A DNA stretch of 32,000 nucleotides from Promethearchaeota archaeon (lineage in GTDB: Archaea > Asgardarchaeota > Thorarchaeia > Thorarchaeales > Thorarchaeaceae), in the NCBI GenBank assembly GCA_027031765.1, contig JALVPN010000144.1, positions 43,724-75,723 on the forward strand. Direction: 5' to 3'. Made by a program: the position numbers and the translations under genes. Under the pieces are notes generated by a model. The model was not told the DNA's origin. It worked only from the letters and a program-made list of their open reading frames with translations, and did no database searches. This document shows positions 6,999 through 19,791 of this stretch, one piece after another. Each line of letters begins with the position of its first letter. The stretch's first letter is position 1.

Positions 6999-7730
6999 AT
7001 GAAGACCGTCAAGAAGATCTTCAAGACAGCCCTTGATGAAGGGCGGACATTCGTCCTGGAGGACGAGGCAAAGAGAGTAATGAGGGAGTATGGGATTCCG
7101 GTCCCACCATTCGCCCCGGCGGCGACGGAAGACGAGGCCGTAGCGAGAGCAAATGAGATTGGATACCCCGTCGTGCTCAAGATACTCTCGAAAGACATCA
7201 TGCACAAGTCGGATGCCGGTGGTGTCAAAGTCAACCTGAACAGCGACGAGGAAGTGAGGAGGGCATTCCAGGAGATCATGGAAAATGCCACGCAGTATGG
7301 AAAGGAGAAAGGTATTGATGTCGACCTGAGCCGCGGGGTCATTGTCACACGTTTTGTTGAGATGGGGACAGAGACCATTGTTGGTGTGACGAAAGACCCT
7401 CAGTTTGGCCATGCGCTGATGTTTGGACTCGGCGGGATATTTGTCGAAGTGCTAAAAGATGTCACATTCCGACTGATACCACTTACAGAAATCGATGCCC
7501 GCGAGATGGTCTACGAGATAAAGGCCAAGAAGATACTGGAGGGGATACGTGGACAGCCACCACGCGACATTGACGCCCTCGTGGAGATAATGCTCACAGT
7601 ATCAAAGATGGTCGAGGAAAACCCTGAGATTGTAGAGATGGACTGCAATCCCACCATCGTATATGAACAGGGGAAGGGTGCGGTCGTTGTCGATGCACGC
7701 ATGGTAATTGAGAGTGCCTCTAGTGACTGA
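6999..7730 (+). CDS. acdB: ADP-forming acetyl/acyl-CoA synthetase beta subunit (ATP-grasp)
   Basis: E.EAK....EYGIPVP, GYPVVLKILSKDIMHKSDAGGV, DPQFGHALMFGLGGIFVEVLKDV, EMDCNP. ATG 6999 preferred; alternative ATG at 6975. Confidence 0.93.
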   Translation: MKTVKKIFKTALDEGRTFVLEDEAKRVMREYGIPVPPFAPAATEDEAVARANEIGYPVVLKILSKDIMHKSDAGGVKVNLNSDEEVRRAFQEIMENATQYGKEKGIDVDLSRGVIVTRFVEMGTETIVGVTKDPQFGHALMFGLGGIFVEVLKDVTFRLIPLTEIDAREMVYEIKAKKILEGIRGQPPRDIDALVEIMLTVSKMVEENPEIVEMDCNPTIVYEQGKGAVVVDARMVIESASSD

Positions 7731-8907
7731 GCAGTGAGCCCAGCAGGCGGCTCAAGAGTATCAGGCCTCTCCTCAAGTCTGATGGGCTGATGCGTCCGGA
7801 CGCAGCGGGGCCCGTCGCGATGGCGAGCAGTAGGAGGAGCGACATGAGCCGAGTCACAAACAGGGTGTGCTCTAGGTGGAAGTCGCGGTTGCCACTCGCA
7901 TCGACTATCAGGAGTTCGAGGCGTCTCATCAGCGGCTCAAGGTAGTCTGCCAGCCCCGAGGTGTTGTGTAGTCTTTTCAGGGCCTGCGTCACAGCCTGCG
8001 GGTCTTGCAGGAAGTCCAGTGGGACTCCAACCGCCCCCAGCAGTGCGAGGCCCCTGTGGGTCACTCGCTCGTAGTCTGACGCGCCAAGCTGTTCCATGGC
8101 CGAGGCAGCCGCATGACATTGTGCGAGTATCCGGAGTGAGCCAGTGAGCACCTCCCGGACGATGCGCGGTCGCGTCGGGACAACTGGTGAGATGTGGACT
8201 GCATGTGACCGTTCAAGATGAGCTGCCATTGAAGAGTCGAGCTGTGACTCGAAGTCTGGAGCCAGGATGACATCAGCAGCCTTGAGGAGTATGGGATGGG
8301 TGCCTACACGGCGGACGGCGACTAATGCCCTGAACTCGTCCGGGTCGACATGGAAGAGCAGGACGCGTGTGACATCATAGGCCCGTTCAAAGTCGTTCTC
8401 TGTAGTGGAGCTGCGTCCCCGGAGAAATGAGAGCAGAGAACACAGTATCGTCCAGATAGATACCAGCGACTCGCACATACCATCACATGCTGCCCGGTCG
8501 TTGACCTCATGTTCATCAAGGAAACGGGCAAGCCGGTCGACCGCACCGCCGAGGCGGCTCATGGTCGGCCCATCAATGGTGACCGCCGCGAGGGAGTCGA
8601 GGGACTCGCGAGGACTGCGTGTTGGCGGCCGCAGCACGAAGAACGGTTGGCGCCGGTCAAGTGACCACCACCTTGATGTCGAGGCGAAGTAGTCAAGGAG
8701 GTCTATGCTCGCGGTCAAGTCGTCCATGCCAGTGGTGTTGCGTCCGTCCAGATAGGCCAAGAGGCGTGAGAAGAGCGAGAGAAACCGTGCGACATGGACG
8801 CGGACCGGGGTGCCGGCCAGTTTTGCGTCTGTGAAGTGGCCCGAAATCGTATTGATATGGGCCAGACATCCTTCATCTAGGGAGGTCGCAATGATGCCAC
8901 GGTACAC
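7720..8907 (-). CDS. Hypothetical all-helical protein with four ~105-aa lid/histone-fold-like repeats
   Basis: Long ORF filling the gap between acdB and uppS; repeated 'A..xGR.tt..D+..A' helical motif near aa 51-70, 160-180, 265-285 and 362-385. Confidence 0.75.
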   Translation of the reverse strand: MYRGIIATSLDEGCLAHINTISGHFTDAKLAGTPVRVHVARFLSLFSRLLAYLDGRNTTGMDDLTASIDLLDYFASTSRWWSLDRRQPFFVLRPPTRSPRESLDSLAAVTIDGPTMSRLGGAVDRLARFLDEHEVNDRAACDGMCESLVSIWTILCSLLSFLRGRSSTTENDFERAYDVTRVLLFHVDPDEFRALVAVRRVGTHPILLKAADVILAPDFESQLDSSMAAHLERSHAVHISPVVPTRPRIVREVLTGSLRILAQCHAAASAMEQLGASDYERVTHRGLALLGAVGVPLDFLQDPQAVTQALKRLHNTSGLADYLEPLMRRLELLIVDASGNRDFHLEHTLFVTRLMSLLLLLAIATGPAASGRISPSDLRRGLILLSRLLGSLLSH

Positions 8908-9055: not shown

Positions 9056-9835
9056 CTACTTGCCAAAACGACGGGTCCTGTGCTCGTAGGACCGCAACGC
9101 ACGCCAGATGTCAATCCGTCGGACTGCTGGCCAATAGACCTGGGCGAAGTACAGTTCGGAGTATGCAGACTGCCACAGGAGGAACCCGGAGAGGCGTTCC
9201 TCGCCGGATGTGCGGATGATCAGGTCGGGGTCGGGGATGCCACTTGTGTAGAGGTGGCGTTCAATGACCTGCTCGTCGATGTCGGAGGGAGCAAGCTCCC
9301 CAACGGCAATCTTCTCACCAATAGCCCTGACAGCATCGACCAGCTCAGTGCGTCCTGAGTAGCCAATGGCAACGTTGAGGATGTGGTCGCTGTAGGCCGC
9401 GGTCTCTGCTTCTGCCATCCGTATGGCCTCCTGCACATCGGGGGGGAGGAGGTCCACCCGACCTATGGCATTGATACGGACGCGGTGCTTGTGTACATCA
9501 GGGTTTCCAACGACCTCTCTGAACTTCTCCTTTGCAATATGCATGATGTGAGAGACCTCTTCTCTGGAACGCCGGAAGTTCTCAACGGAGAAGGCATAGA
9601 GCGTGCAGACCTTGACGCCAGCTTCCCACAGGATACGGAGCACTTCCATGACCTTCTGAGCACCCTTCTGGTGACCGAACCATGGGGCGTCTACACCGTG
9701 CTCGCGGGCGTATCGTCTGTTGCCGTCGAGGATTATGCCCACATGCCGGGGCGCCCTTTCTTTGTTCAGTTGCCTGTGCAACCAGAACTCATAGAGCCGG
9801 TAGACCGGACCAGTGAGGTTCAATGCTCCGCGCAC
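9056..9835 (-). CDS. uppS: cis-Prenyltransferase (undecaprenyl/polyprenyl diphosphate synthase)
   Basis: HVGIILDGNRRYA, GHQKG, YAFSVENFRR, DPDLIIRTSGEERLSGFLLWQSAYSELYF. Confidence 0.96.
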   Translation of the reverse strand: MRGALNLTGPVYRLYEFWLHRQLNKERAPRHVGIILDGNRRYAREHGVDAPWFGHQKGAQKVMEVLRILWEAGVKVCTLYAFSVENFRRSREEVSHIMHIAKEKFREVVGNPDVHKHRVRINAIGRVDLLPPDVQEAIRMAEAETAAYSDHILNVAIGYSGRTELVDAVRAIGEKIAVGELAPSDIDEQVIERHLYTSGIPDPDLIIRTSGEERLSGFLLWQSAYSELYFAQVYWPAVRRIDIWRALRSYEHRTRRFGK

Positions 9836-10049: not shown

Positions 10050-10421
10050 CTATATCATCTTGGCAATCTTGTCGGCCGCCCGTTTCATGTCTAGGAAGAT
10101 GAGGCCGAGCTTTGCATTTGCAGTTGTGGACACTGTAAGGCACGCATTCATCCCGGCCTGGACCACAAGCAGCCAGCCGTCGGCCCCCTTGATGTTCACC
10201 TGTTCAAGAGTGCCCTTGCCGAGTTCGATGGCAGCCTTCTCACCCAAGGTCAGCATGGCTGCCGTCATGGCGGCCACCTTTGCTTCGTCCACATCAGTGG
10301 GCAGGGCAGACACGATTGGCAGCCCCTCAACACTCACAATGGCACATGCCTCAATCTCAGGAATACTTCCCTGTAGCTCGTTGAGCACACCTTCAAGAGT
10401 ATCTTCGCGTGTTTCACTCAA
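10050..10421 (-). CDS. Roadblock/LC7 domain protein
   Basis: IEACAIVSVEGLPIVSALP, KVAAMTAAML.LGEKAA.ELGKG.LEQV.IKG..G, LGLIFLDMKRAA. TTG start with SD TGAGGTGG. Confidence 0.93.
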   Translation of the reverse strand: MSETREDTLEGVLNELQGSIPEIEACAIVSVEGLPIVSALPTDVDEAKVAAMTAAMLTLGEKAAIELGKGTLEQVNIKGADGWLLVVQAGMNACLTVSTTANAKLGLIFLDMKRAADKIAKMI

Positions 10422-10432
10422 TTAGCCCCACC

Positions 10433-11005
10433 TCACTTGTACAACCGCTTGAGGATTACCTCGCGCGCTATCGCTTGGAATGCGCGCTTCACACCCACAC
10501 CTTGGACAGCGATGGTCTCGTAGATTGGGACGTTCCCGCCAAGTCCCAGCAGGTCAAGCATCTCCTCGCGGGACATCCGGTTTGGCAAGTCCCGCTTGTT
10601 GAGCATCACCACAATGGGGATTTCGCGCCCCAACGCATCCCCGAGGAACAGTTTGAGTTCCTCAAAGCTCTCGACGTTCTCCTCGCGTTGATCCGGGGAC
10701 GAGTCGGCAACAAAGAGGATGCCATCCGCTCCTTGTAGGACGACCTTCCTCTGATGGCGGTGTCTCTTCTGACCGGCAACCGTGAACACATCAAAGAGCA
10801 CGCGACCACCGGCACTCATCGGGACATAGTCAAAGAACAGAGTCCGGTTCGTTTCGTCCTCAATCGCAGTGAACTCGCCCTTCTGTAACCCCTCGACCTT
10901 GCCATACAGCCATCTCAGTGCAGTGGTCTTTCCACCCAGCGAGGGGCCATAGAAGACCAGTTTGAGATGGATGCGACCTTCGGTATCACGCCGTATTGTA
11001 AACAC
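10433..11005 (-). CDS. mglA: MglA-family small GTPase
   Basis: G1 FYGPSLGGKTT; switch I NRTLFFDYVP (intrinsic Arg finger); G3 TVAGQ; VADS...ENVES; G4 NKRD; G5 TIA..GVGV. GTG start with SD GTGAGG. Confidence 0.9.
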   Translation of the reverse strand: MFTIRRDTEGRIHLKLVFYGPSLGGKTTALRWLYGKVEGLQKGEFTAIEDETNRTLFFDYVPMSAGGRVLFDVFTVAGQKRHRHQRKVVLQGADGILFVADSSPDQREENVESFEELKLFLGDALGREIPIVVMLNKRDLPNRMSREEMLDLLGLGGNVPIYETIAVQGVGVKRAFQAIAREVILKRLYK

Positions 11006-11180
11006 CTCACTGTTCCACTGCGTTGTTAGTCACCGGGACAGGGCCCGGAGAGATCATCGAGAGATGCGGACTCCATGCCACTAAGGACGCGCGACTGATA
11101 CGGGCCTCGCGGCCCGGCAGGATGGTCAGGACCCAGTGTGATGGCCAGAGTCCGGGGTTGAGTGTTCTAGATTTCAGTCC

Positions 11181-11188
11181 AATAAAAG
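11181..11188 (-). promoter_or_regulatory. Putative TATA box (CTTTTATT) upstream of mglA with GTGGC-N4-GCCAC palindrome
   Basis: Near-identical to the element at 1243-1275; it implies a leader of about 150 nt. Confidence 0.45.
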
Positions 11189-11410
11189 CCTTTGTGGCAC
11201 AGGCCACTGTTGGTGTGTCGAACCAAGGACAGCTTGGGACAGACAGGGCCATTGTAAGTGGCAGGTGGAAGTTGACAGATGACTCGTTGGACATTGTTCC
11301 GGCCACACTATCGCATGCTCTCATCCGCCAGCAGTGGGCACTATGACCATATTGGGTAGCTGTGACCCGTACGGTCGGGACGATACCAGCGCCCCTACTG
11401 GAATAGAGGC

Positions 11411-11881
11411 TCACACGCGCTCCAACTTTGCCAGAGCTGACCGCAGGTCTTCCTCGTCGATGTCCTTGTCCTTGCCAGGGGCCTCAACACCCTCGACCGA
11501 GAGGAACTCGTCCAGCTCGCGGGCAAGCTGTGCGCCCTGCTTCTTCATTACAAGACGGATGAGCCCAATGTTGACCTCGGCTTCCGACACAACGCACAGC
11601 ACACCTTTCCCGCAGGCGGAGGCGAAAATCTTGCCCTGAGAGAACTCTGAGGTGACAATCTCAAGCTCACCGATCTGTAGGTTCTTGCCCTGTTCCTCAC
11701 TGGCACAGAAGACGGCACTGGCAATCGCACCGATAGAGTCAACATCAACGGGGTAGTAGCTCAACTTTGACACGTTGGCAATTGTGAGTCCCGTCTTGTC
11801 AACCAGGATTACTTTCTTGATACCTTTGTCTTGCTTGATTATCTCGGTAAGGATCTTGTCGAAAGCCTTTGGATCAGTCAT
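11411..11881 (-). CDS. Roadblock/LC7 (MglB-like) protein with acidic linker and C-terminal helix
   Basis: VILVDKTGLTIA, IGAIASAVF.ASEEQGK.L.IGELE.V..EF..GKI, NIGLIRL; about 30-aa tail ending DEEDLRSALAKLERV. Confidence 0.88.
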   Translation of the reverse strand: MTDPKAFDKILTEIIKQDKGIKKVILVDKTGLTIANVSKLSYYPVDVDSIGAIASAVFCASEEQGKNLQIGELEIVTSEFSQGKIFASACGKGVLCVVSEAEVNIGLIRLVMKKQGAQLARELDEFLSVEGVEAPGKDKDIDEEDLRSALAKLERV

Positions 11882-11895
11882 GATGTCAACCCCAC

Positions 11896-12192
11896 TTATG
11901 CATTCTTCAGAACCACTAGTATCAGGCCTTCTCGTGGTTCCGGTGCGATGTTTATCTGTCCTTTGGAAGTGTCAAGAGTGAGGAACGAGAGGCTCCCCTC
12001 TTTCAACTCCCTCACGGCGTCAAGGGCCTTGCCGACCAGAGAAGTGATTATTGCAGCAACACTCTCGGTGGTCTCTGGGTCGAGGTCGCTACTCAAGGGT
12101 AGGCCTTCCATCGTGGTGACCACTACTCCACGGACGCCCTCTTGAGCCTTAATCTTGTTGAGGATTCCCTCAAGTTTCTCTTGGCTAATCAA
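11896..12192 (-). CDS. Dynein light chain roadblock (DYNLRB)-like protein
   Basis: Start re-picked to TTG 12192 (SD GCGGTGAT 7 nt upstream), 98 aa: [38 protein letters not shown]...[17 protein letters not shown]...LILVVLKN. The ORF-track 5' extension is not protein-like. Confidence 0.85.
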
Positions 12193-12352
12193 CGATGGTA
12201 TCACCGCTGCTGTCAATGGTGCTTCCAACGCATTTTTCGTACTCTTTCTGGGTATTTGAGAGTTGTGATTATTATCTCTGCGTATCGGCTGCACGCTGCA
12301 CGTAGTAGCAGCCTGTACACTGCAAAGGGAGTGGCCAGAAATAAAGCTGCTC

Positions 12353-14017
12353 CTACTCGTCGTCATCGTCCTCCTCGTCGTCCTCACGCACCAGTTCATC
12401 AAGTCGTGCACGCATCTTTGAGATGTTCATGGACGCCATCATATCCCTGGCCATTGCGGCCCGGAATGGTGGGGCTGCTGCAGCCTCTGCCTGCACCTGA
12501 ATCTGCTCCTCAAGGTCTTCTTCCTGTTCGGCCATTATGCGGTCGGCCGTTTCAAAGGACTCACGTGCATGAGAGGGCGCAGCAGCAGCCATGGCACGCA
12601 GGACATGTCGCAATTCCCGGATTTTTGATGCTCCGGCCTCTTGGTGCCCATGAAATGCCTCCTCCCCCGCCTTCTGTACAGCAAAGGCTGCTGAGAGGGT
12701 CGGGTCAAACGATGCGAGGAGTTCATCCTCCCGGCGTGCAACTTTCAGTTCCGTGGTGACGGCCCGGAGATGGCGCGCACCCTCATCGTCGGTGTATTCG
12801 ACCTGTATCTGGATTGGGACTGTTTCGGACTCGATTTCGTGTGTTGGTTCCATGGAGAGATAGATCTCATGGGTATCGGCTACAGCACCGATACGGCTGC
12901 TCCGTGCCCCCGCCAGTGAGCGGGCCGCCTCAGGGGAAAGGCCGGACACTTCGCCAACACGCACCCCGGGTGGTGTGATGACCCGGACTTCGACATCGCG
13001 ACCGAGAATGCTGGCCCCAGACAGACGGGCCATGTACTTGTCCAGTTCCGAGGGCGTGACGTAGTACATCTGTCCGCCCGTTATCTCAGGAATGAGTCCG
13101 ATGGTCTGTAGTTCCATTCCTGACCCTGATGCGATGCCCACCACATCGAAGATGACACCCACATCATTGAACATCCGGGCAATCTGCTCATAGAACTCCT
13201 TGGCCGGGGTGACCTGATAGCCCTCCAATGCGCCAACGCCCTCATTTGCAAGCCCATCGGTAAGGAGCACCACACGGCCCACTCCGCGGTGTTTCGCAAT
13301 GACATATGCTGCGGCGACAGCGGGTCCAAGGGCTGTGCCACCCTTGTCACGCAGTTGCCGGACATGGTGCTTCAGGCGGTCTGCATTGGTACCCACAGGG
13401 ATCATCTTCACACGGTCCAGGAGCCTGCGGGTGGCGTCCATGACCCGTTCCAAGCTGGCATAACTGCCAGGGGGTATCTGGATGGGCGCCCCGGTCTCAA
13501 GGTCACGTATCACCACGCTGCTCTCGAACTCAATAAGACCGAACATGGTCTCGGGAGAGTTTGCGGCAAGGCTGTCAATGGAGTTACTTAGACTGCGCTT
13601 CACAGCTGCAAGATTGGCGCCGGCCATGGAACCAGAAACATCAATCACTGCAAGGAATGCCTTTCCAGCTGCGGGCGCAGGCTGTGTCTCAGTGGTAGTG
13701 GTCTCCTTGGGTGGCGGACTGACAACAAAGTCGGTATCGCTACCAGCCGAAACTATCTCGCCCTCTATCACGTTCAGCGTGCCACAGAAGGAGCACACAA
13801 AGTGACGCCCTATGCGTGAGTCTTCCTTTATCTGGTCTGCACTGAGCAGGACTGCGCCACATTTGTGACATGCAATCGGGCGGCCTACAATGCGGCGTGG
13901 CTCCCGGGCCAGTTCTGAGAAGTCGATACGGACTACGTAGGGGAGGCCACGGGTCACATCCCGGGATGCTGGAAACATATCCGAGCTTGTCCGTAGCATG
14001 GGCATATACAGAACCAC
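12353..14017 (-). CDS. Sec23/Sec24-like protein (Zn finger + vWA trunk + beta-sandwich + helical region)
   Basis: CHKC...CSFC zinc finger preceded by P; vWA with [19 protein letters not shown] and TGGQMYY; beta-sandwich [17 protein letters not shown]; acidic tail. Start is GTG 14017 or ATG 14005. Confidence 0.82.
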
Positions 14018-14309
14018 CGTCAGTCCAATTGTCTGGAGAGCCTATACATGAACCGTATTAAGTGAATCGTAGATGGGGGAGGGTCAAAAGGCGAGTGGGT
14101 ATGGGCTCGAAAGCCACAACGTCCACAGCTGGGGGAACACGGAAAGGGTGGGGACAGCGAGGTGTACACCGTGCATACCGGTCGGGCTCCATAACTAGCT
14201 GCGAACACTAGCCCACAGGAAACCAGACAAGGGGCAGGGACTGGACGAGTGAACTGTGGAACAGCGTGCGGCACAGCACCAACGGCATGGAGGCCGCCCA
14301 CCAACACAA

Positions 14310-14317
14310 GATATAAG
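14310..14317 (+). promoter_or_regulatory. Putative TATA box (GATATAAG) of the plus-strand roadblock gene
   Basis: Preceded by BRE-like ACACAA; about 50 nt before the start. Confidence 0.5.
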
Positions 14318-14365
14318 GAGTGAGTAATCCAAACCTAGTAACGAATAGACCGCTACGGGGACTGA

Positions 14366-14737
14366 TTGACAGTGGTTGACAAGGCCAAGATTGAGAAGAT
14401 AGTTGCTGATACAATGGCAGCTAATACCGACCTCGAGGGAATTGTGGTCTGTGAGCCGACCGGCAAAGTGATCTTTGGGCACATGATTGCCGGGGGCATA
14501 AGACATGTGGACGTCGCGGGTCTTGCAGTCAAGATAGCAGCTGACGCGTCCCAGCTTGTGAAGACTCTTGAGAAGGGCGGACTGAGAGAGGTCACAATTG
14601 CATCGGAGCTAGGAGTCGTTGTGATTCTTGGTGACGTGAAGATGGTCGTGGCAGGAATAGCCGGGAAGAGCGCGCACGAGTCCATAGGGCTACTACGGAT
14701 GGCCCTCAAGCGTGCGTTGCTAGAGATGGTGGAGTAG
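14366..14737 (+). CDS. Divergent roadblock/LC7-fold protein
   Basis: About 120 aa; LEGIVVCEPTGKVI, GLREVTIASELGVVVI and SIGLLRMALKR fit the roadblock alpha-beta pattern. Start TTG 14366 or GTG 14372. Confidence 0.75.
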   Translation: MTVVDKAKIEKIVADTMAANTDLEGIVVCEPTGKVIFGHMIAGGIRHVDVAGLAVKIAADASQLVKTLEKGGLREVTIASELGVVVILGDVKMVVAGIAGKSAHESIGLLRMALKRALLEMVE

Positions 14738-14944: not shown

Positions 14945-17900
14945 TTGGTCTACATTGAGAAGATTGTGGTCAAAGGGTTCAAGTCGTTTGGTCGCGAAAC
15001 GGTGACCATCAGGCTGAGCCCGGGATTCACATGTGTTGTTGGACCTAACGGCTCCGGCAAGTCCAATGTGATTGATGCGATACTGTTCGTCTTGGGGCAA
15101 CTCAGTGCAAAGACGCTGCGTGCTACTGTGTTCTCGGACCTGCTCTATAAGCCACCAAAACCAGGTATGCCACCGGGCGCAAGGAAGGCGGTCGTGGAAC
15201 TGCACTTCAACAACCAGGACCGCAAGCTGAAGGTCGATGCAGACAAGGTGGTCATTGCAAGAGAACTGGACGAGTCGGGCAAGTCGGTCTGCAGGGTTAA
15301 CGGCAAGGTCGTTACAAGGGCGACTGTACTGGATGTGCTAGGGAGCATAGGTGTCGACCCAAACGGGTACAACCTTGTGCTGCAGGGTGAGATAGCACAG
15401 ATGGTGAAGGTGAGCCCGAACGACCGTCGCAAGTTGATTGAAGAGATTGCTGGAATCTCGGCGTACGACGAACAGAAAGAACGTGCCCTGAAGAAGCTAG
15501 CGGAAAGCGAGGCTAATCTTGGCAAGGTGGAGGCACAGCTGCAAGAACGGCGCCGACAGCTCGAACGACTCGAGCTGGAGAGAGAGGATGCGCTCAAATA
15601 TACCGAGATCCAGTCGAGGATGCAACAGATACGGGTTGACAGGCTGGCGTGGACCATCCTCAAGGCGCAGAGTAGGACTAGAACCATAAAGGAGAACCTC
15701 GTTGAGCGTGCGGAGAGGGCCAGACAGCTGGAGGAGAGGGTCAGGGAAGTCGAGAAGGCCATAGACACCGCCGAAACAGAAATTGAAGAGATTGACCGGG
15801 CCATTGACCAGATCACAGGCAGCGAGTCTGCACGGGTGTCAGAACAACTGGGAAAGGCCTCAGCAGCACTCGAACATGTGAGAAGAGAGTTTGAGGGGCG
15901 AGCCAAGGAGCTTGAGGGCAAGAGGGCACTGCTCACCGTGACGCAGGAACAGATTGCCGGCTTGGGTCGCGAGATTGAGGAGGCCACCCGACAGATTGAG
16001 GAGAAGGAGAACAGGCTCAAAGAGGTGGTCGCCGAGGTCGAGGGCTGTGAGGACAGTATCCGACGACTTGAGACAGTTTCCGAACGGGAGCAAGCCCAGT
16101 TCCTCGAAACGACACAGAAGCTCCAAGAGCTCAACAGACTGGTCGCTGCGCTTGACGAACAAATCTCAGAAGCCCGTTCCCAAGTCAGGTCGAACAAGAG
16201 GGACATAAGGCTCCTGTACGAGGACATAGAGGACGCCAAGGGCGCCCTTGAGAGGGCCGAGGCCGAGCGTGAGGAACTGGAGAGGACAGTTCCGGAGAAG
16301 CGCCAGGAGTTGGAAGTCCTTGAGCGTGAGGAGGAGGACACCCAGGACCAGCTGGTACGTGTCCGTGAGCAGCTGTCCAGAGTCGGTGCCGAGGTGGCCG
16401 AAACAAGCAAGATTGTCAGCGAGACCCGGGAGGAGCTCGTCAAGATACGTGCCCGGCAGGATGCACTTAGAGAGGCTGAAGAGGCATTTCTGAGGAGGAA
16501 ACGAGCTGTTGCACGAGTGCTACAGCTGAGGGACACGGGAGAAGTGGACGGGATCTATGGCACCGTTGCGGAGCTGGGCAAGATCAATCCAGACTACGCG
16601 GTCGCAATGGAGGTGGCCGGTGGAAACAGGCTCTCTTACATCGTCGTGGAAGACGAAGATGTCGCGACCAAGTGCATAAGAGTCCTGAAACAGGAGCGTG
16701 TTGGTCGTGCGTCATTCATCCCGCTGAACAAGATCAGGACACGCGCGCCCGGAAAGCTGCCCGATGATGACGGTGTGATTGGTTTTGCACTAGACCTCGT
16801 CAGTTTCGACAAGCGACTACAGCCCGCATTCGAGTTCGTCTTCTCGGACACCATTGTTACCGAGGACTTTGAGGCGGCCAAGCGCATCGGCTTCAGGGGC
16901 AACCGTGCGGTCTCGCTGGATGGGGACCTTGTTGAGCGTTCGGGACTGGTCACGGGAGGACACTACCAGAGGCAGACGGCCGGGCTCACACTGCAGATTG
17001 AAGACACAACACCGGAGGTCATCACCCGCCTCGAAGGCCTTGAAAACATACTGGCTGGGCTGCTGCAGAAACAGGAGGAACTAGAAGCAACAAGACAACG
17101 TCTTGAGAAGCAGGCCCAAGACCTGTCGAAGAAGCTGTATGTTGGACGGATGGAACTCGAACGGCTCGAGGAACGGCTTGGAGACCGTCAGACCCGTGTG
17201 TCTATGTTGACCGAGAGAATAGAGGAGAACGGACAACGTGTTGCAGCCCTAGAGAGAGAGACCCACGAACTGGAAGAGGAGATGGACAGGCTAATAGCGG
17301 AGAAGGAACGTATTCAGGAGGAACGGGACGCCTGCAACGAGATACTTGCACGGTCGGATGTTGCAAGGGTCAACCAAGAGATACGCGATTTGAAAGTGGT
17401 GCTTGAACGCAAGGCCCGTGAGAGAGATGAGATAAAGGACGCGTTGTCTAGGCTGAGAACCAGCGTTGAGGAGAGGTTTAGACCGCGTGTCCACGAACTC
17501 CAGAGAAGACTTGATGCCACGGAGAGAGAGATACCAACACTGGAGGCCCAAGTACGTGAGTTGGAGCAGGAACTTAAGGAAAAAGAGGCCCAGTACGAAA
17601 CGCTCAGAAGCGAACATGCCCGGATAGAGGCTTCTGTGAAGGACAGACGTATCCGTCAGGCCGAGTTGAAGAGAAAACTTGCCGACCTGCGACGCGCGCT
17701 CGATGAAACAAAGGACGAGCGGACCCAGAACGACAAGGCGATATACCGGCTGCAGACCGAACAGGCACGTCTGGAGAACGAGCTGGTCGGAGTGGAGGCC
17801 GAACTGGCCAACCTAGCCGATGTCAGAGAGGAACTGGAGAAGAGGCGGTCGATGCGGGAGGTGACATACAGGGAGCTCGACGAGATGACGGAGAAGATCA

Positions 17901-18535
17901 GGGAACTTGAGCGGGAACTCGATGAGATGGGGCCGGTCAACATGAAGTCGCTGACAGACTATGAGGCTGAACGTGAGAGGTACGAGGAGATTGTTGACAG
18001 GAAGGTCAAACTGGAGGAGGAACACAAGGAAATCCTGCGGTTCATGGAGGAGCTGGAGGCTGAGAAGACGCGGAAGTTCCTCAGGGTGTATAATGAGATA
18101 GCGGACAACTTCTCAAGGGTGTTTGCCAAGCTCTCACCGGGTGGAGAAGCACATCTGATGCTTGAGAACCCTGAGCACCCGCTCATGGGGGGGATAATTG
18201 TAAAGTCAAAGCCGCAGGGCAAGGATGTCGTCACGCTGGATGCCATGAGCGGTGGGGAGAAGACGCTCACAGGGCTGGCCCTGATATTTGCAGTGCAGAT
18301 GTACAGCCCCGCAAGCTTCTACGTCTTTGATGAGATTGATGCAGCCCTTGATGATGTAAACGCACACAATGTTGCGACTCTCATCTCAGAGATGTCGAAG
18401 TCATCGCAGTTCATTGTGGTATCCCTGAGGGAGGCCACCGTTAGCAAGGCAGACCTGTTAATCGGAGTTTCGAACCAAGACGGTATCTCACGGATCGTTT
18501 CGGTCGACCTGGAGGGGGTGACGAGCACTGCATGA
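14945..18535 (+). CDS. smc: Chromosome segregation protein SMC
   Basis: Walker A GPNGSGKSN; long coiled coils; hinge GIYGTVAEL...GRASFIPLNKI...SGLVTGG; signature MSGGEK; Walker B VFDEID. Confidence 0.97.
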   Translation: MVYIEKIVVKGFKSFGRETVTIRLSPGFTCVVGPNGSGKSNVIDAILFVLGQLSAKTLRATVFSDLLYKPPKPGMPPGARKAVVELHFNNQDRKLKVDADKVVIARELDESGKSVCRVNGKVVTRATVLDVLGSIGVDPNGYNLVLQGEIAQMVKVSPNDRRKLIEEIAGISAYDEQKERALKKLAESEANLGKVEAQLQERRRQLERLELEREDALKYTEIQSRMQQIRVDRLAWTILKAQSRTRTIKENLVERAERARQLEERVREVEKAIDTAETEIEEIDRAIDQITGSESARVSEQLGKASAALEHVRREFEGRAKELEGKRALLTVTQEQIAGLGREIEEATRQIEEKENRLKEVVAEVEGCEDSIRRLETVSEREQAQFLETTQKLQELNRLVAALDEQISEARSQVRSNKRDIRLLYEDIEDAKGALERAEAEREELERTVPEKRQELEVLEREEEDTQDQLVRVREQLSRVGAEVAETSKIVSETREELVKIRARQDALREAEEAFLRRKRAVARVLQLRDTGEVDGIYGTVAELGKINPDYAVAMEVAGGNRLSYIVVEDEDVATKCIRVLKQERVGRASFIPLNKIRTRAPGKLPDDDGVIGFALDLVSFDKRLQPAFEFVFSDTIVTEDFEAAKRIGFRGNRAVSLDGDLVERSGLVTGGHYQRQTAGLTLQIEDTTPEVITRLEGLENILAGLLQKQEELEATRQRLEKQAQDLSKKLYVGRMELERLEERLGDRQTRVSMLTERIEENGQRVAALERETHELEEEMDRLIAEKERIQEERDACNEILARSDVARVNQEIRDLKVVLERKARERDEIKDALSRLRTSVEERFRPRVHELQRRLDATEREIPTLEAQVRELEQELKEKEAQYETLRSEHARIEASVKDRRIRQAELKRKLADLRRALDETKDERTQNDKAIYRLQTEQARLENELVGVEAELANLADVREELEKRRSMREVTYRELDEMTEKIRELERELDEMGPVNMKSLTDYEAERERYEEIVDRKVKLEEEHKEILRFMEELEAEKTRKFLRVYNEIADNFSRVFAKLSPGGEAHLMLENPEHPLMGGIIVKSKPQGKDVVTLDAMSGGEKTLTGLALIFAVQMYSPASFYVFDEIDAALDDVNAHNVATLISEMSKSSQFIVVSLREATVSKADLLIGVSNQDGISRIVSVDLEGVTSTA

Positions 18536-19245
18536 GTGATGACAACACCCCCTTCTGGGCCACGCCCCCGTATATACTGTTGACCGACGTGCTCCAACTT
18601 GACAAGGTCGACCCCTGGAACGTCGATGTCGGAAAGCTTGTGAGGGAGTTCCTTGAGGAGATGAAACGACTTGGTGACATCGATTTCAGGGTCTCTGGCA
18701 GTGCGTTGTACTCTGCATCAGTCATATTCATGCGCAAGACACGGGATCTCGTGAAGATGGGGGTGCTACCACCGGAGGAGGACGAGGAGGAGGAGCTCGA
18801 AATCCCACTGATTAGACCCCCGTTCAGACTCACGAACCGGCGTGTGACCATTGAGGAACTGCTCGTCGCGATGGACAGAGTCCTCTCCCGAGGCATCAGA
18901 GGACGGCCGTCACCTAGCAGACGGAAGAGGGGCTCACAGGTGGCACCCCCGACCTTGAAGATGGAGGTAAGCGAAACAAATGTGGAGGAAACAATAGCAG
19001 AAGTGTATGCAGACCTCCGGCAGATGATGGGAGTTGGCAGTACCTGTCGATTTGAAGACCTGCTCGTCAACAACACCAGACGTGAGATTGTACGTGTGTT
19101 CTTCTCCCTGCTGTACTTGTATGCAAGGGGGTACATTGACCTGTGGATGGACGAGGAGCAGACAATCTGGGTCAGGCTTCTCGCACCGCCAGTCAGCGGA
19201 CACGAACAGCTCGCACAGGTCGAACAACAACACGGGCCCAGGTGA
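18532..19245 (+). CDS. scpA: Segregation/condensation protein A (kleisin)
   Basis: DKVDPWNVDV, IDFRVSG..L..AS, C-terminal IVRVFFSLLYL...GYIDL; overlaps the smc stop codon (ATGA). Confidence 0.9.
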   Translation: MSDDNTPFWATPPYILLTDVLQLDKVDPWNVDVGKLVREFLEEMKRLGDIDFRVSGSALYSASVIFMRKTRDLVKMGVLPPEEDEEEELEIPLIRPPFRLTNRRVTIEELLVAMDRVLSRGIRGRPSPSRRKRGSQVAPPTLKMEVSETNVEETIAEVYADLRQMMGVGSTCRFEDLLVNNTRREIVRVFFSLLYLYARGYIDLWMDEEQTIWVRLLAPPVSGHEQLAQVEQQHGPR

Positions 19246-19248
19246 GGA

Positions 19249-19791
19249 TTGTTGGACGAGGACATGGTGACACTTGAGGCTGCACTGTATGTCACCGGTC
19301 GGCCGATGGCCTTGGAGGAACTCGCATCGCTCATTGGGAAGGCCGAGTCCACGACCAGGAAGCTGCTTGAAGAGCTCGCATTCGAGTATGACAGGCGTGG
19401 CGGGGCTCTCGAGGTAGTTGCACTCCCGCGTGACCGCTACGTACTGCAACTGAAGCCAGAACTGACGCCCCGTGTTGGAAAGCTGATCCCAGGTGGCCTG
19501 CTGTCATTTGCGACGCTGCAGACCCTCGTGTACATTGCGCTGAAGCAGCCAATCCTTCAGTCAGAACTTGTGTTGCAACGTGGGACACAGGCATACGAAC
19601 ATGTGAGAGAACTTGTAGACAAGAAGTTCGTACAGGCGACTCCCGAGCGGCGCACCCAACGGCAGGAAACAACACCACTGTTTGCAGACTACTTTGGGTT
19701 TGACCACGACAAGGTGAAGATGAAAGCACAGCTGCGACATAGGATGAGGAAAATCCTTGAGGAGCAACGACTGGCAGAACAGAACTCCTAA
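19249..19791 (+). CDS. scpB: Segregation/condensation protein B (KITE)
   Basis: LEAALYVTGRPM, tandem wHTH, TL..IA.KQPI, TT..F..YFG; follows scpA. Confidence 0.92.
   Translation: MLDEDMVTLEAALYVTGRPMALEELASLIGKAESTTRKLLEELAFEYDRRGGALEVVALPRDRYVLQLKPELTPRVGKLIPGGLLSFATLQTLVYIALKQPILQSELVLQRGTQAYEHVRELVDKKFVQATPERRTQRQETTPLFADYFGFDHDKVKMKAQLRHRMRKILEEQRLAEQNS

Follow-up and report, generated by a model that had tools for sequence, protein, structure and literature searches.

Does the close neighbourhood of a coat-like gene, a small GTPase gene and four putative regulator genes in an Asgard archaeon reflect one coupled system, or an older module beside which an unrelated gene has settled? We examined this in a Thorarchaeial genome (95% complete), in a stretch of 32,000 nucleotides (nt) of contig JALVPN010000144.1 (contig C144 here; assembly GCA_027031765.1, positions 43,724 to 75,723 of the forward strand), the whole of which is referred to as the window. 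It encodes a Sec23/24-like protein (hereafter Sec24-like), an MglA-family GTPase and four roadblock proteins, of which RoblA, RoblB and RoblC are co-oriented with the first two and RoblD is divergent. An earlier note had named these six genes, and the coordinates and identities of all of them were confirmed. Its further proposal, that one locus couples a GTPase switch, roadblock regulators and a coat-like effector, is not supported in that form: the GTPase and its roadblocks are conserved without a Sec23/24-like gene, and the link belongs to one family, in which it has been undone three times. We favour, with a probability of about 0.7, a composite locus, in which an ancient Asgard MglA/four-roadblock module was joined by a Sec24-like gene that relocated in the ancestor of one Thorarchaeial family.

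Distribution of the module and of the Sec24-like gene

We found an MglA orthologue in 188 of the 251 sampled Asgard genomes and in 26 of 27 families, with one large family mostly without it (5/61 genomes). Upon viewing 24 MglA loci outside Thorarchaeia (Frey-, Baldr-, Jord- and Heimdallarchaeial contigs together with 20 further loci from 14 families), we observe the module in complete or reduced form, and none of the loci has a Sec23/24-like gene within 8 kb (0/24). The full set, with RoblD divergent and followed by RoblA, RoblB, MglA and RoblC, is present in seven of the 24, from five families; a prenyltransferase gene is often present there and smc-scpA often lies beyond RoblD. The remaining loci carry either RoblA, RoblB, MglA and RoblC or smaller sets. 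RoblC orthologues stand 3′ of MglA in most Asgard loci, and RoblD orthologues are divergent to RoblA in families f4, f8, f12, f15 and f18.

Viewed from the other gene, 20 Sec23/24-like loci outside Thorarchaeia (Hermod-, Frey-, Jord-, Heimdallarchaeial and other Asgard bins) were searched with family hidden Markov models to a distance of 10 kb and showed neither roadblock nor MglA genes. Their neighbours are metabolic or transport genes, with synteny restricted to the individual lineage, and on a complete Freyarchaeial chromosome the module and the Sec23/24-like gene are 860 kb apart. Sec23/24-like genes occur in 99 of the 251 genomes, from nine families, including six genomes of the family that is mostly without MglA. 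The phyletic patterns of the two are independent. Because the module recurs across Asgard families with no Sec23/24-like gene nearby, the conserved entity is MglA with its four roadblocks, and the link to the Sec24-like gene is a single family-level event.

Within Thorarchaeia, about 28 named species-level loci share the order RoblD, Sec24-like, RoblA, RoblB, a gap, MglA, RoblC, prenyltransferase and a protein of 395 amino acids (aa); the loci were searched with a 9-row Sec24-like alignment, a version with 27 homologues being too diverse. By coordinates, 46 genomes of the Thorarchaeial family f1 have the Sec24-like gene and MglA within 5 kb on the same contig. A further eight are undecided as the contig ends there, and three true exceptions were checked on the DNA, so that the genes are linked in 46 of the 49 resolved genomes. 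In the first exception (G005) the module is whole, RoblD adjoins RoblA, and the Sec24-like gene is translocated to another contig amid unrelated genes. In the second (G082) the gene is deleted, and what remains of it in the 630-bp gap between RoblD and RoblA is the final 18 codons, whose translation matches the C-terminus found in close relatives at every residue. In the third (G079, 98% complete) no Sec24-like copy was found and the region 5′ of RoblA is rearranged. The sister family (f2, genome G001) has a complete module with the Sec24-like gene on a different contig. In the Sec24-like protein tree the f1 and f2 copies are sisters and the G005 copy falls within f1; for this reason the gene is best read as a resident that moved within the genome and not as an import. 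The recurrence of the Thorarchaeial gene order is one ancestral event. A synteny survey, which the earlier note had suggested as its check, thus gives a divided answer: the order is kept in one Thorarchaeial family and the module across Asgard archaea, but Sec24-like adjacency was seen at 0 of 44 loci elsewhere.

Identity of the GTPase, the roadblocks and the Sec24-like protein

The GTPase matches solved Myxococcus and Thermus MglA with a phmmer E-value of 2e-39 (138 bits; aligned residues 11-185), compared with 1e-11 (47 bits) for the best Arf. A P-loop, GPSLGGKT, and the NKRD motif are present, and G20, G25, K26, T27, N136, K137 and D139 are invariant among 28 Asgard orthologues, as are R54, T75, G78 and Q79. 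The switch-I arginine motif RTLFFD aligns with the identical motif of Myxococcus MglA (R53 of the Thermus protein being the intrinsic arginine), and TVAGQ, which replaces DxxGQ, aligns with TVPGQ of MglA. By these comparisons the protein is a bona fide MglA, nearer to MglA than to other Ras-superfamily groups, as the earlier note had called it. It has no additional domain, and in particular no C-terminal roadblock domain. Orthologues from the same class are 88-97% identical, and those from across the phylum 56-68%. The true start is probably the ATA codon at 10996-10994, which precedes RRD, and not the GTG at 11005, because a conserved GAGGTG lies six nt 5′ of the former; at the homologous position relatives carry ATG, GTG, TTG or an Ile codon. 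Additionally, the source genome holds two more MglA-like paralogues (G000:C31:30533-31075, 55% identical, and G000:C40:81780-82295, 38%), with a Robl_LC7 match 8 kb from the former and 1.6 kb from the latter, out of 14 Robl_LC7 matches genome-wide.

The four roadblock proteins are separate paralogues, each with orthologues across Asgard classes, and the description of them as four distinct proteins stands. RoblA, whose start codon was chosen by ortholog alignment, matches Robl_LC7 (4e-15) and LAMTOR5 (27.9 bits), both over the Pfam cut-off, and is close to PDB entry 7f8f (4e-26) and to human DYNLRB (4e-13); it is without a C-terminal helix, like LAMTOR4/5 and DYNLRB. RoblB matches Robl_LC7 (6.7e-10) and, over the Pfam cut-off, MAPKK1_Int, the LAMTOR3 family. 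The same LAMTOR5 and MAPKK1_Int families were also recorded for the RoblA and RoblB orthologues at six other places. The closest solved relatives of RoblB are MglB proteins (4.5e-5), and it shows the features of the MglB type, namely a Roadblock/LC7 fold, a gene close to mglA and a C-terminal helix extension, the last consisting of a variable linker and a conserved DEEDLKSAL-type helix motif as in MglB (55-67% identity across Asgard classes). Because its match to the NCBIfam MglB equivalog model is far under the cut-off (1.4e-4, 22 bits, cut-off 200), RoblB is, as judged by that score, not an equivalog of bacterial MglB. RoblC is a classical member (Robl_LC7 5.6e-17; PDB 7f8m 5.6e-24, 9jue 1.4e-17). 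RoblD gave no match in the Pfam scan; hhalign relates it to the RoblC family with 98.4% and to the RoblB family with 94.6% probability, and its profile matches the solved roadblock 9jq8 with an E-value of 1.4e-22.

Solved entries named "Roadblock/LC7 domain protein" thus lie near RoblD (9jq8), RoblC (7f8m, 9jue) and RoblA (7f8f), and no paper behind 9jq8 or 9jue was found in the literature searched. Among the Asgard roadblock structures of Tran et al. 2024 (PMC10933270), 7f8f is close to RoblA and 7f8m close to RoblC, the latter being however a paralogue and not the SMTZ1-45 orthologue of RoblC. In Lokiarchaeon MK-D1, GTPase genes are reported to lie generally outside operons with roadblock genes (PMC10933270), whereas elsewhere in Asgard archaea we find the MglA-roadblock module to be widespread, the large family noted above being the one in which it is mostly not found.

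Next, we examined the Sec24-like protein. It matches Pfam Sec23_trunk with 4.9e-10 and 39.8 bits (cut-off 27), and Sec23_BS (22.3, cut-off 33.5) and zf-Sec23_Sec24 were detected under their cut-offs. Its AlphaFold2 (AF2) model (predicted local distance difference test, pLDDT, 90.8; predicted template modelling score, pTM, 0.90) has, in order, beta-barrel strands, a Cys4 zinc finger, a von Willebrand factor A (vWA) trunk, a beta-sandwich, a helical domain and an acidic tail. In Foldseek searches of the PDB, the best 46 matches are all Sec23 or Sec24 (E 1e-27 to 1e-19; template modelling score, TM, 0.61-0.72; 540-640 aligned columns). Single-sequence phmmer against PDB sequences gave nothing at E 0.001 and a profile was needed, which matches Sec24 with 3.6e-24 (88 bits), in an alignment that starts at the zinc finger and extends into the helical domain, and Sec23 with 8.5e-9 (38 bits). 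Across 27 diverse homologues the zinc cysteines C46, C49, C71 and C74 never vary, and neither does a complete metal ion-dependent adhesion site (MIDAS; D122-x-S124-x-S126...T224...D250). No gelsolin domain was found, as there is no Pfam match and the model ends in helices at residue 550; Asgard Sec23-like proteins in general are also without it (PMC11914678, Nat Commun 2025).

As modelled, the Sec24-like protein is a true structural homologue of the COPII inner coat. The earlier note's wording of a Sec23/24-like, Sar1-binding coat therefore needs dividing: homology and fold hold, but by profile the protein resembles the cargo subunit Sec24 more than the Sar1-binding Sec23, and the gelsolin domain is missing. 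Compared with COPII Sec23/Sec24 and Sar1, the zinc finger, vWA trunk, beta-sandwich and helical domain come in equal order and a small GTPase gene is nearby in f1. The differences are that the gelsolin domain, which in Sec23 carries the arginine of the GTPase-activating protein (GAP), is absent; that the MIDAS is complete here, yeast Sec24 having Ser at the last Asp position in the profile alignment; that there is a single gene per genome and not a Sec23/Sec24 pair; and that the adjacent GTPase is MglA and not Sar1/Arf, with the adjacency confined to one family. Identity among Sec24-like orthologues is 46-64% within the class and 30-38% across the phylum. The "SEC24 family transport protein" of Thorarchaeote SMTZ1-45 (P0031) is 60% identical to the window's protein, and it and the Asgard Sec23-like proteins of PMC11914678 belong to the same family, the latter likewise with the gelsolin domain missing; that paper has no neighbourhood analysis, and the linkage and its limits are added here.

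Two further features of this protein family were seen. Most Thorarchaeial orthologues end in a conserved LAQMKRSSK-x-LF followed by an acidic run (e.g. L002:7944-9620, L013:6451-8112), and the window's copy (12353-12430) has a divergent tail with a longer terminal acidic run. On the contig of P0134 (ENA ERZ24794648) a gene for a 481-aa WD40 beta-propeller comes next after a Sec23/24-like gene (31% identical), the two overlapping by 14 nt, a pairing that recalls coat architecture and was present at none of the other loci viewed.

The composite reading and its alternatives

In the composite reading, the Sec24-like gene would have entered the gap between RoblD and RoblA in the ancestor of family f1 and mostly stayed there. 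The invariant residues indicate that MglA acts as a nucleotide switch through its own switch-I arginine and switch-II glutamine. By analogy with MglA/MglB and Ragulator, dimers of roadblocks would form a platform that sets the nucleotide state and location of MglA, including RoblB as an MglB-like regulator, with RoblA as its probable partner, and RoblC, joined or not by RoblD, as further subunits. The output of the switch would be a spatial or membrane-site signal, and the Sec24-like protein, expressed from its own promoter-like element, would at most be a lineage-specific accessory or client of it. Neither the MglA module nor the Sec24-like gene needs the other. With the MglA/MglB system of Myxococcus xanthus and Thermus thermophilus, in which MglC and RomY are further roadblock-type or accessory partners, the locus shares the GTPase family and the mglBA-like placement, just 5′ of the GTPase gene, of a gene for an MglB-like protein that has a C-terminal helix; it differs in its archaeal host, in having four distinct roadblocks as opposed to one homodimeric MglB, and in that RomR/RomX, motility and Frz genes are absent from the locus.

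Several points weigh against the composite reading. Many of the genomes are incomplete metagenome-assembled genomes, so that absences mean "not found". The Sec24-like gene stays in place in almost all members of f1 even though the neighbouring gaps take insertions, and in Thorarchaeial loci we found no insertion between it and RoblA, the gap being short; selection for co-expression would also yield such a retained position. Furthermore, read-through transcription across the units described below may occur, the promoters resting on conservation.

Among the alternatives, one that we hold as tentative takes the four roadblocks as two heterodimers that form a membrane platform for MglA, a prokaryotic counterpart of LAMTOR2/3 and LAMTOR4/5 with the Rag GTPases and not of the MglB homodimer GAP. 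As in Ragulator/Rag and the dynein roadblock, several long- and short-type roadblock subunits lie beside a small GTPase; the four paralogues are each conserved across classes, the LAMTOR5 and MAPKK1_Int matches recur among orthologues, RoblA has the helix-free form of LAMTOR4/5 and DYNLRB, and the tight gene pairs suggest co-translated partners. However, the GTPase is an MglA that, unlike the Rags, has no roadblock domain, the locus showed no gene for a LAMTOR1-like scaffold, no dynein is present here, and several lineages keep just one or two roadblock genes beside MglA; the heterodimers themselves are a prediction.

A functional link between the Sec24-like protein and the switch, as client or effector in one family, is possible but less likely than not, because it goes back to a single relocation, because at this depth local synteny is generally high and because the partners persist separately. 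Its fullest version, an integrated proto-coat in which the Sec24-like protein is the effector of MglA-GTP, MglA plays the part of Sar1, and the Sec24-like protein, assembled or regulated on dimers of roadblocks, attaches to membrane or cargo, we regard as rather unlikely. It would account for the retained adjacency in f1, for the short, insertion-free gap to RoblA and for the COPII inner coat fold; moreover, a small GTPase and Sec22, a longin-domain SNARE, are among the binding partners of eukaryotic Sec23/24 (PDB 1m2o and 2nut, by title), and an Asgard Arf binds yeast Sec23 in a GTP-dependent manner (PMC11914678). On the other side, the adjacency is one event in one family, missing in the sister family and at all 44 other-lineage loci viewed; the module persists where the Sec24-like gene has been lost or moved away; the protein lacks the gelsolin domain and is nearer Sec24 than Sec23; and the promoter-like boxes are separate. 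Asgard Sec23-like proteins are also without the Sar1-contact residues, and their co-precipitation with an Asgard Arf, a GTPase that is not MglA, was weak and nucleotide-independent (PMC11914678). A four-chain complex prediction of the Sec24-like protein with RoblA, RoblB and MglA, each chain having its own alignment, reached scores of 0.30 and 0.25, the mark being 0.32, and was counted neither way. Quite improbable is a reading in which the resident Sec24-like protein was recruited by the MglA/four-roadblock switch as a prototype of COPII pre-budding, that is, a GTPase-controlled membrane- or cargo-binding assembly with MglA in place of Sar1 and roadblock dimers regulating it. Finally, that the Sec24-like protein is an ArnB-type vWA regulator, a ligand-binding signalling protein with a metal site, unrelated to vesicle coats and to MglA, is unlikely: its complete and invariant MIDAS, its next fold matches after Sec23/24 (a bacterial vWA protein and the Sulfolobus ArnA/ArnB complex, E 1.6e-15), the vWA/beta-sandwich/helical arrangement of the Sec23/24 core, which ArnB is described as sharing (PMC12852372), and the metabolic or transport contexts in other Asgard lineages would suit it, but the Sec23/24 match is far stronger (E 1e-27, TM 0.64-0.72, about 600 columns, with the zinc finger in one chain) and neither a kinase gene nor one for an FHA partner was seen in the vicinity.

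All components of the composite locus were already known in Asgard archaea, and a Thorarchaeial MglA-MglB pair is modelled in the discussion of a 2026 paper. We found no description of the MglA/four-roadblock cluster or of the Sec24-like insertion in the literature searched, which did not include Zaremba-Niedzwiedzka 2017 or Liu 2021 in its journal version; the earlier note had likewise taken each component to be known in Asgard archaea and had named no description of their linkage. The Liu et al. preprint describes the eukaryotic-signature genes of Asgard archaea as mostly scattered, and an ESCRT and a DENN cluster are the only conserved neighbourhoods of such proteins that it names. With genes so scattered it is hard to tell which regulator or effector belongs to which GTPase, and here genome context pairs MglA with four specific roadblocks across most Asgard families, which defines a group of five proteins, all small and soluble. 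One of these roadblocks is, among archaeal proteins, the nearest relative of the dynein roadblock light chain, and two others match Ragulator-type Pfam models. The Thorarchaeial Sec24-like insertion offers a cheap test of a link between a coat relative and a GTPase, with the relatives in which the gene is lost or moved as natural controls. A link that proves only positional would caution against reading too much of a "proto-trafficking" system into the locus.

Layout, promoter-like boxes and neighbouring genes

The features of the locus are listed in Table 1. Seven co-oriented genes run on the minus strand from 14005 to 7720, the Sec24-like gene first and the 395-aa gene last. A five-gene minus-strand array had been described; the co-orientation is as stated, but the array extends further, to the cis-prenyltransferase and the 395-aa gene, and the 405-bp spacer between RoblB and MglA had gone unmentioned. 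Two pairs are tight, with spacers of 14 nt (RoblA-RoblB) and 11 nt (MglA-RoblC).

Table 1. Genes and other features of the locus, in window coordinates, from RoblD to the end of the co-oriented array.
Feature	Coordinates	Strand	Basis
RoblD, divergent fourth roadblock, 123 aa	14366-14737	+	profile comparison
Promoter-like box CACTTAATAC, 50-59 nt before the Sec24-like ATG	14055-14064	-	conservation
Sec23/24-like (Sec24-like) protein, 550 aa	12353-14005	-	Pfam, AF2 model, Foldseek
Promoter-like box CACAACTCTCAAATAC 5′ of RoblA	12252-12267	-	conservation in Thorarchaeial loci
RoblA, short roadblock, 98 aa, DYNLRB/LAMTOR5 type	11896-12192	-	Pfam, PDB matches
RoblB, MglB-like roadblock, 156 aa	11411-11881	-	Pfam, MglB as best solved relatives
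Non-coding spacer RoblB/MglA, 405 bp	11006-11410		no open reading frame, Rfam or tRNA match
Promoter-like box CCACAAAGGCTTTTATTGGAC 5′ of MglA	11177-11197	-	conservation
MglA-family small GTPase, 190 aa counted from GTG	10433-11005	-	phmmer, invariant motifs
RoblC, classical roadblock, 123 aa	10050-10421	-	Robl_LC7
cis-Prenyltransferase (UPPS type)	9056-9835	-	Pfam Prenyltransf 4e-77
395-aa all-helical protein, end of co-oriented array	7720-8907	-	AF2 pLDDT 90.9

Upon examining the spacer, we found no open reading frame, no Rfam match even at E 1 and no tRNA; a nominal frame at 11007-11414 on the minus strand (135 aa) has no family and an implausible composition and was taken as non-coding. 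A structured RNA was likewise rejected (fold z-score -1.4), the only conserved part being a promoter-like box of 21 nt. In relatives the gap between RoblB and MglA ranges from 4 bp to 3.9 kb and holds unrelated genes, several on the opposite strand, among them those for a CLC channel, a TetR regulator with a methyltransferase, and NosD-like, arrestin-like and zinc-ribbon proteins. The junction is an insertion hot spot in Thorarchaeia (L012:12576-16496, L011:12604-14906, L024:12601-14896, L023:12614-14204), and the insert in L023 encodes a protein like arrestin-N/C (E 2.5e-20).

The 21-nt box 5′ of MglA (CCACAAAGGCTTTTATTGGAC) is unique in the window (0/100 shuffles) and 93-100% identical in many Thorarchaeial loci, 70-185 nt 5′ of MglA. 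The box CACAACTCTCAAATAC is conserved in Thorarchaeial loci about 65 nt 5′ of RoblA, and one of its type precedes RoblA also in G005, where no Sec24-like gene stands in front. Before the Sec24-like gene, ACTTAAAAC or ACTTAATAC is found at the matching distance in most Thorarchaeial loci, followed by a GGAGG-type Shine-Dalgarno site. The three boxes resemble BRE/TATA elements, and their conservation suggests a promoter role. Since conserved boxes precede the Sec24-like gene, RoblA and MglA and opposite-strand inserts lie between RoblB and MglA, the array is, on these sequence features, at least three units and not one operon. The boxes were also considered as a shared specific regulatory motif and rejected as such, because a CCACAA-N4-A/T box also precedes an unrelated gene near 1258 on the minus strand; they therefore give no evidence of co-regulation, and this box looks like the organism's general promoter form. 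In most Thorarchaeial loci (e.g. L003, L009, L012) a further conserved element, AATGCGCAAA, lies about 125 nt 5′ of RoblA, between the Sec24-like stop and RoblA, and is absent in the window.

Among the neighbouring genes, the cis-prenyltransferase lies directly or closely 3′ of RoblC in Thorarchaeia, Baldrarchaeia and families f4, f12, f13, f15 and f18. The 395-aa gene follows the prenyltransferase in all Thorarchaeial loci and was found in Thorarchaeial relatives only. Its product gave no match in Pfam and NCBIfam scans, its model had no Foldseek match in the PDB at E 0.001 or better, and a protein atlas gave no lead; a relationship to AAA+ lid or histone-like proteins was discarded, as a VIA-align Z of 6.5 or less is at noise level for helical proteins. 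Beyond RoblD the window carries smc-scpA-scpB (14945-19791), and smc-scpA, with or without scpB, takes this place in Thorarchaeia and in two other Asgard families (f12, f18), an adjacency that spans classes (e.g. L085, L123, L130, L133).

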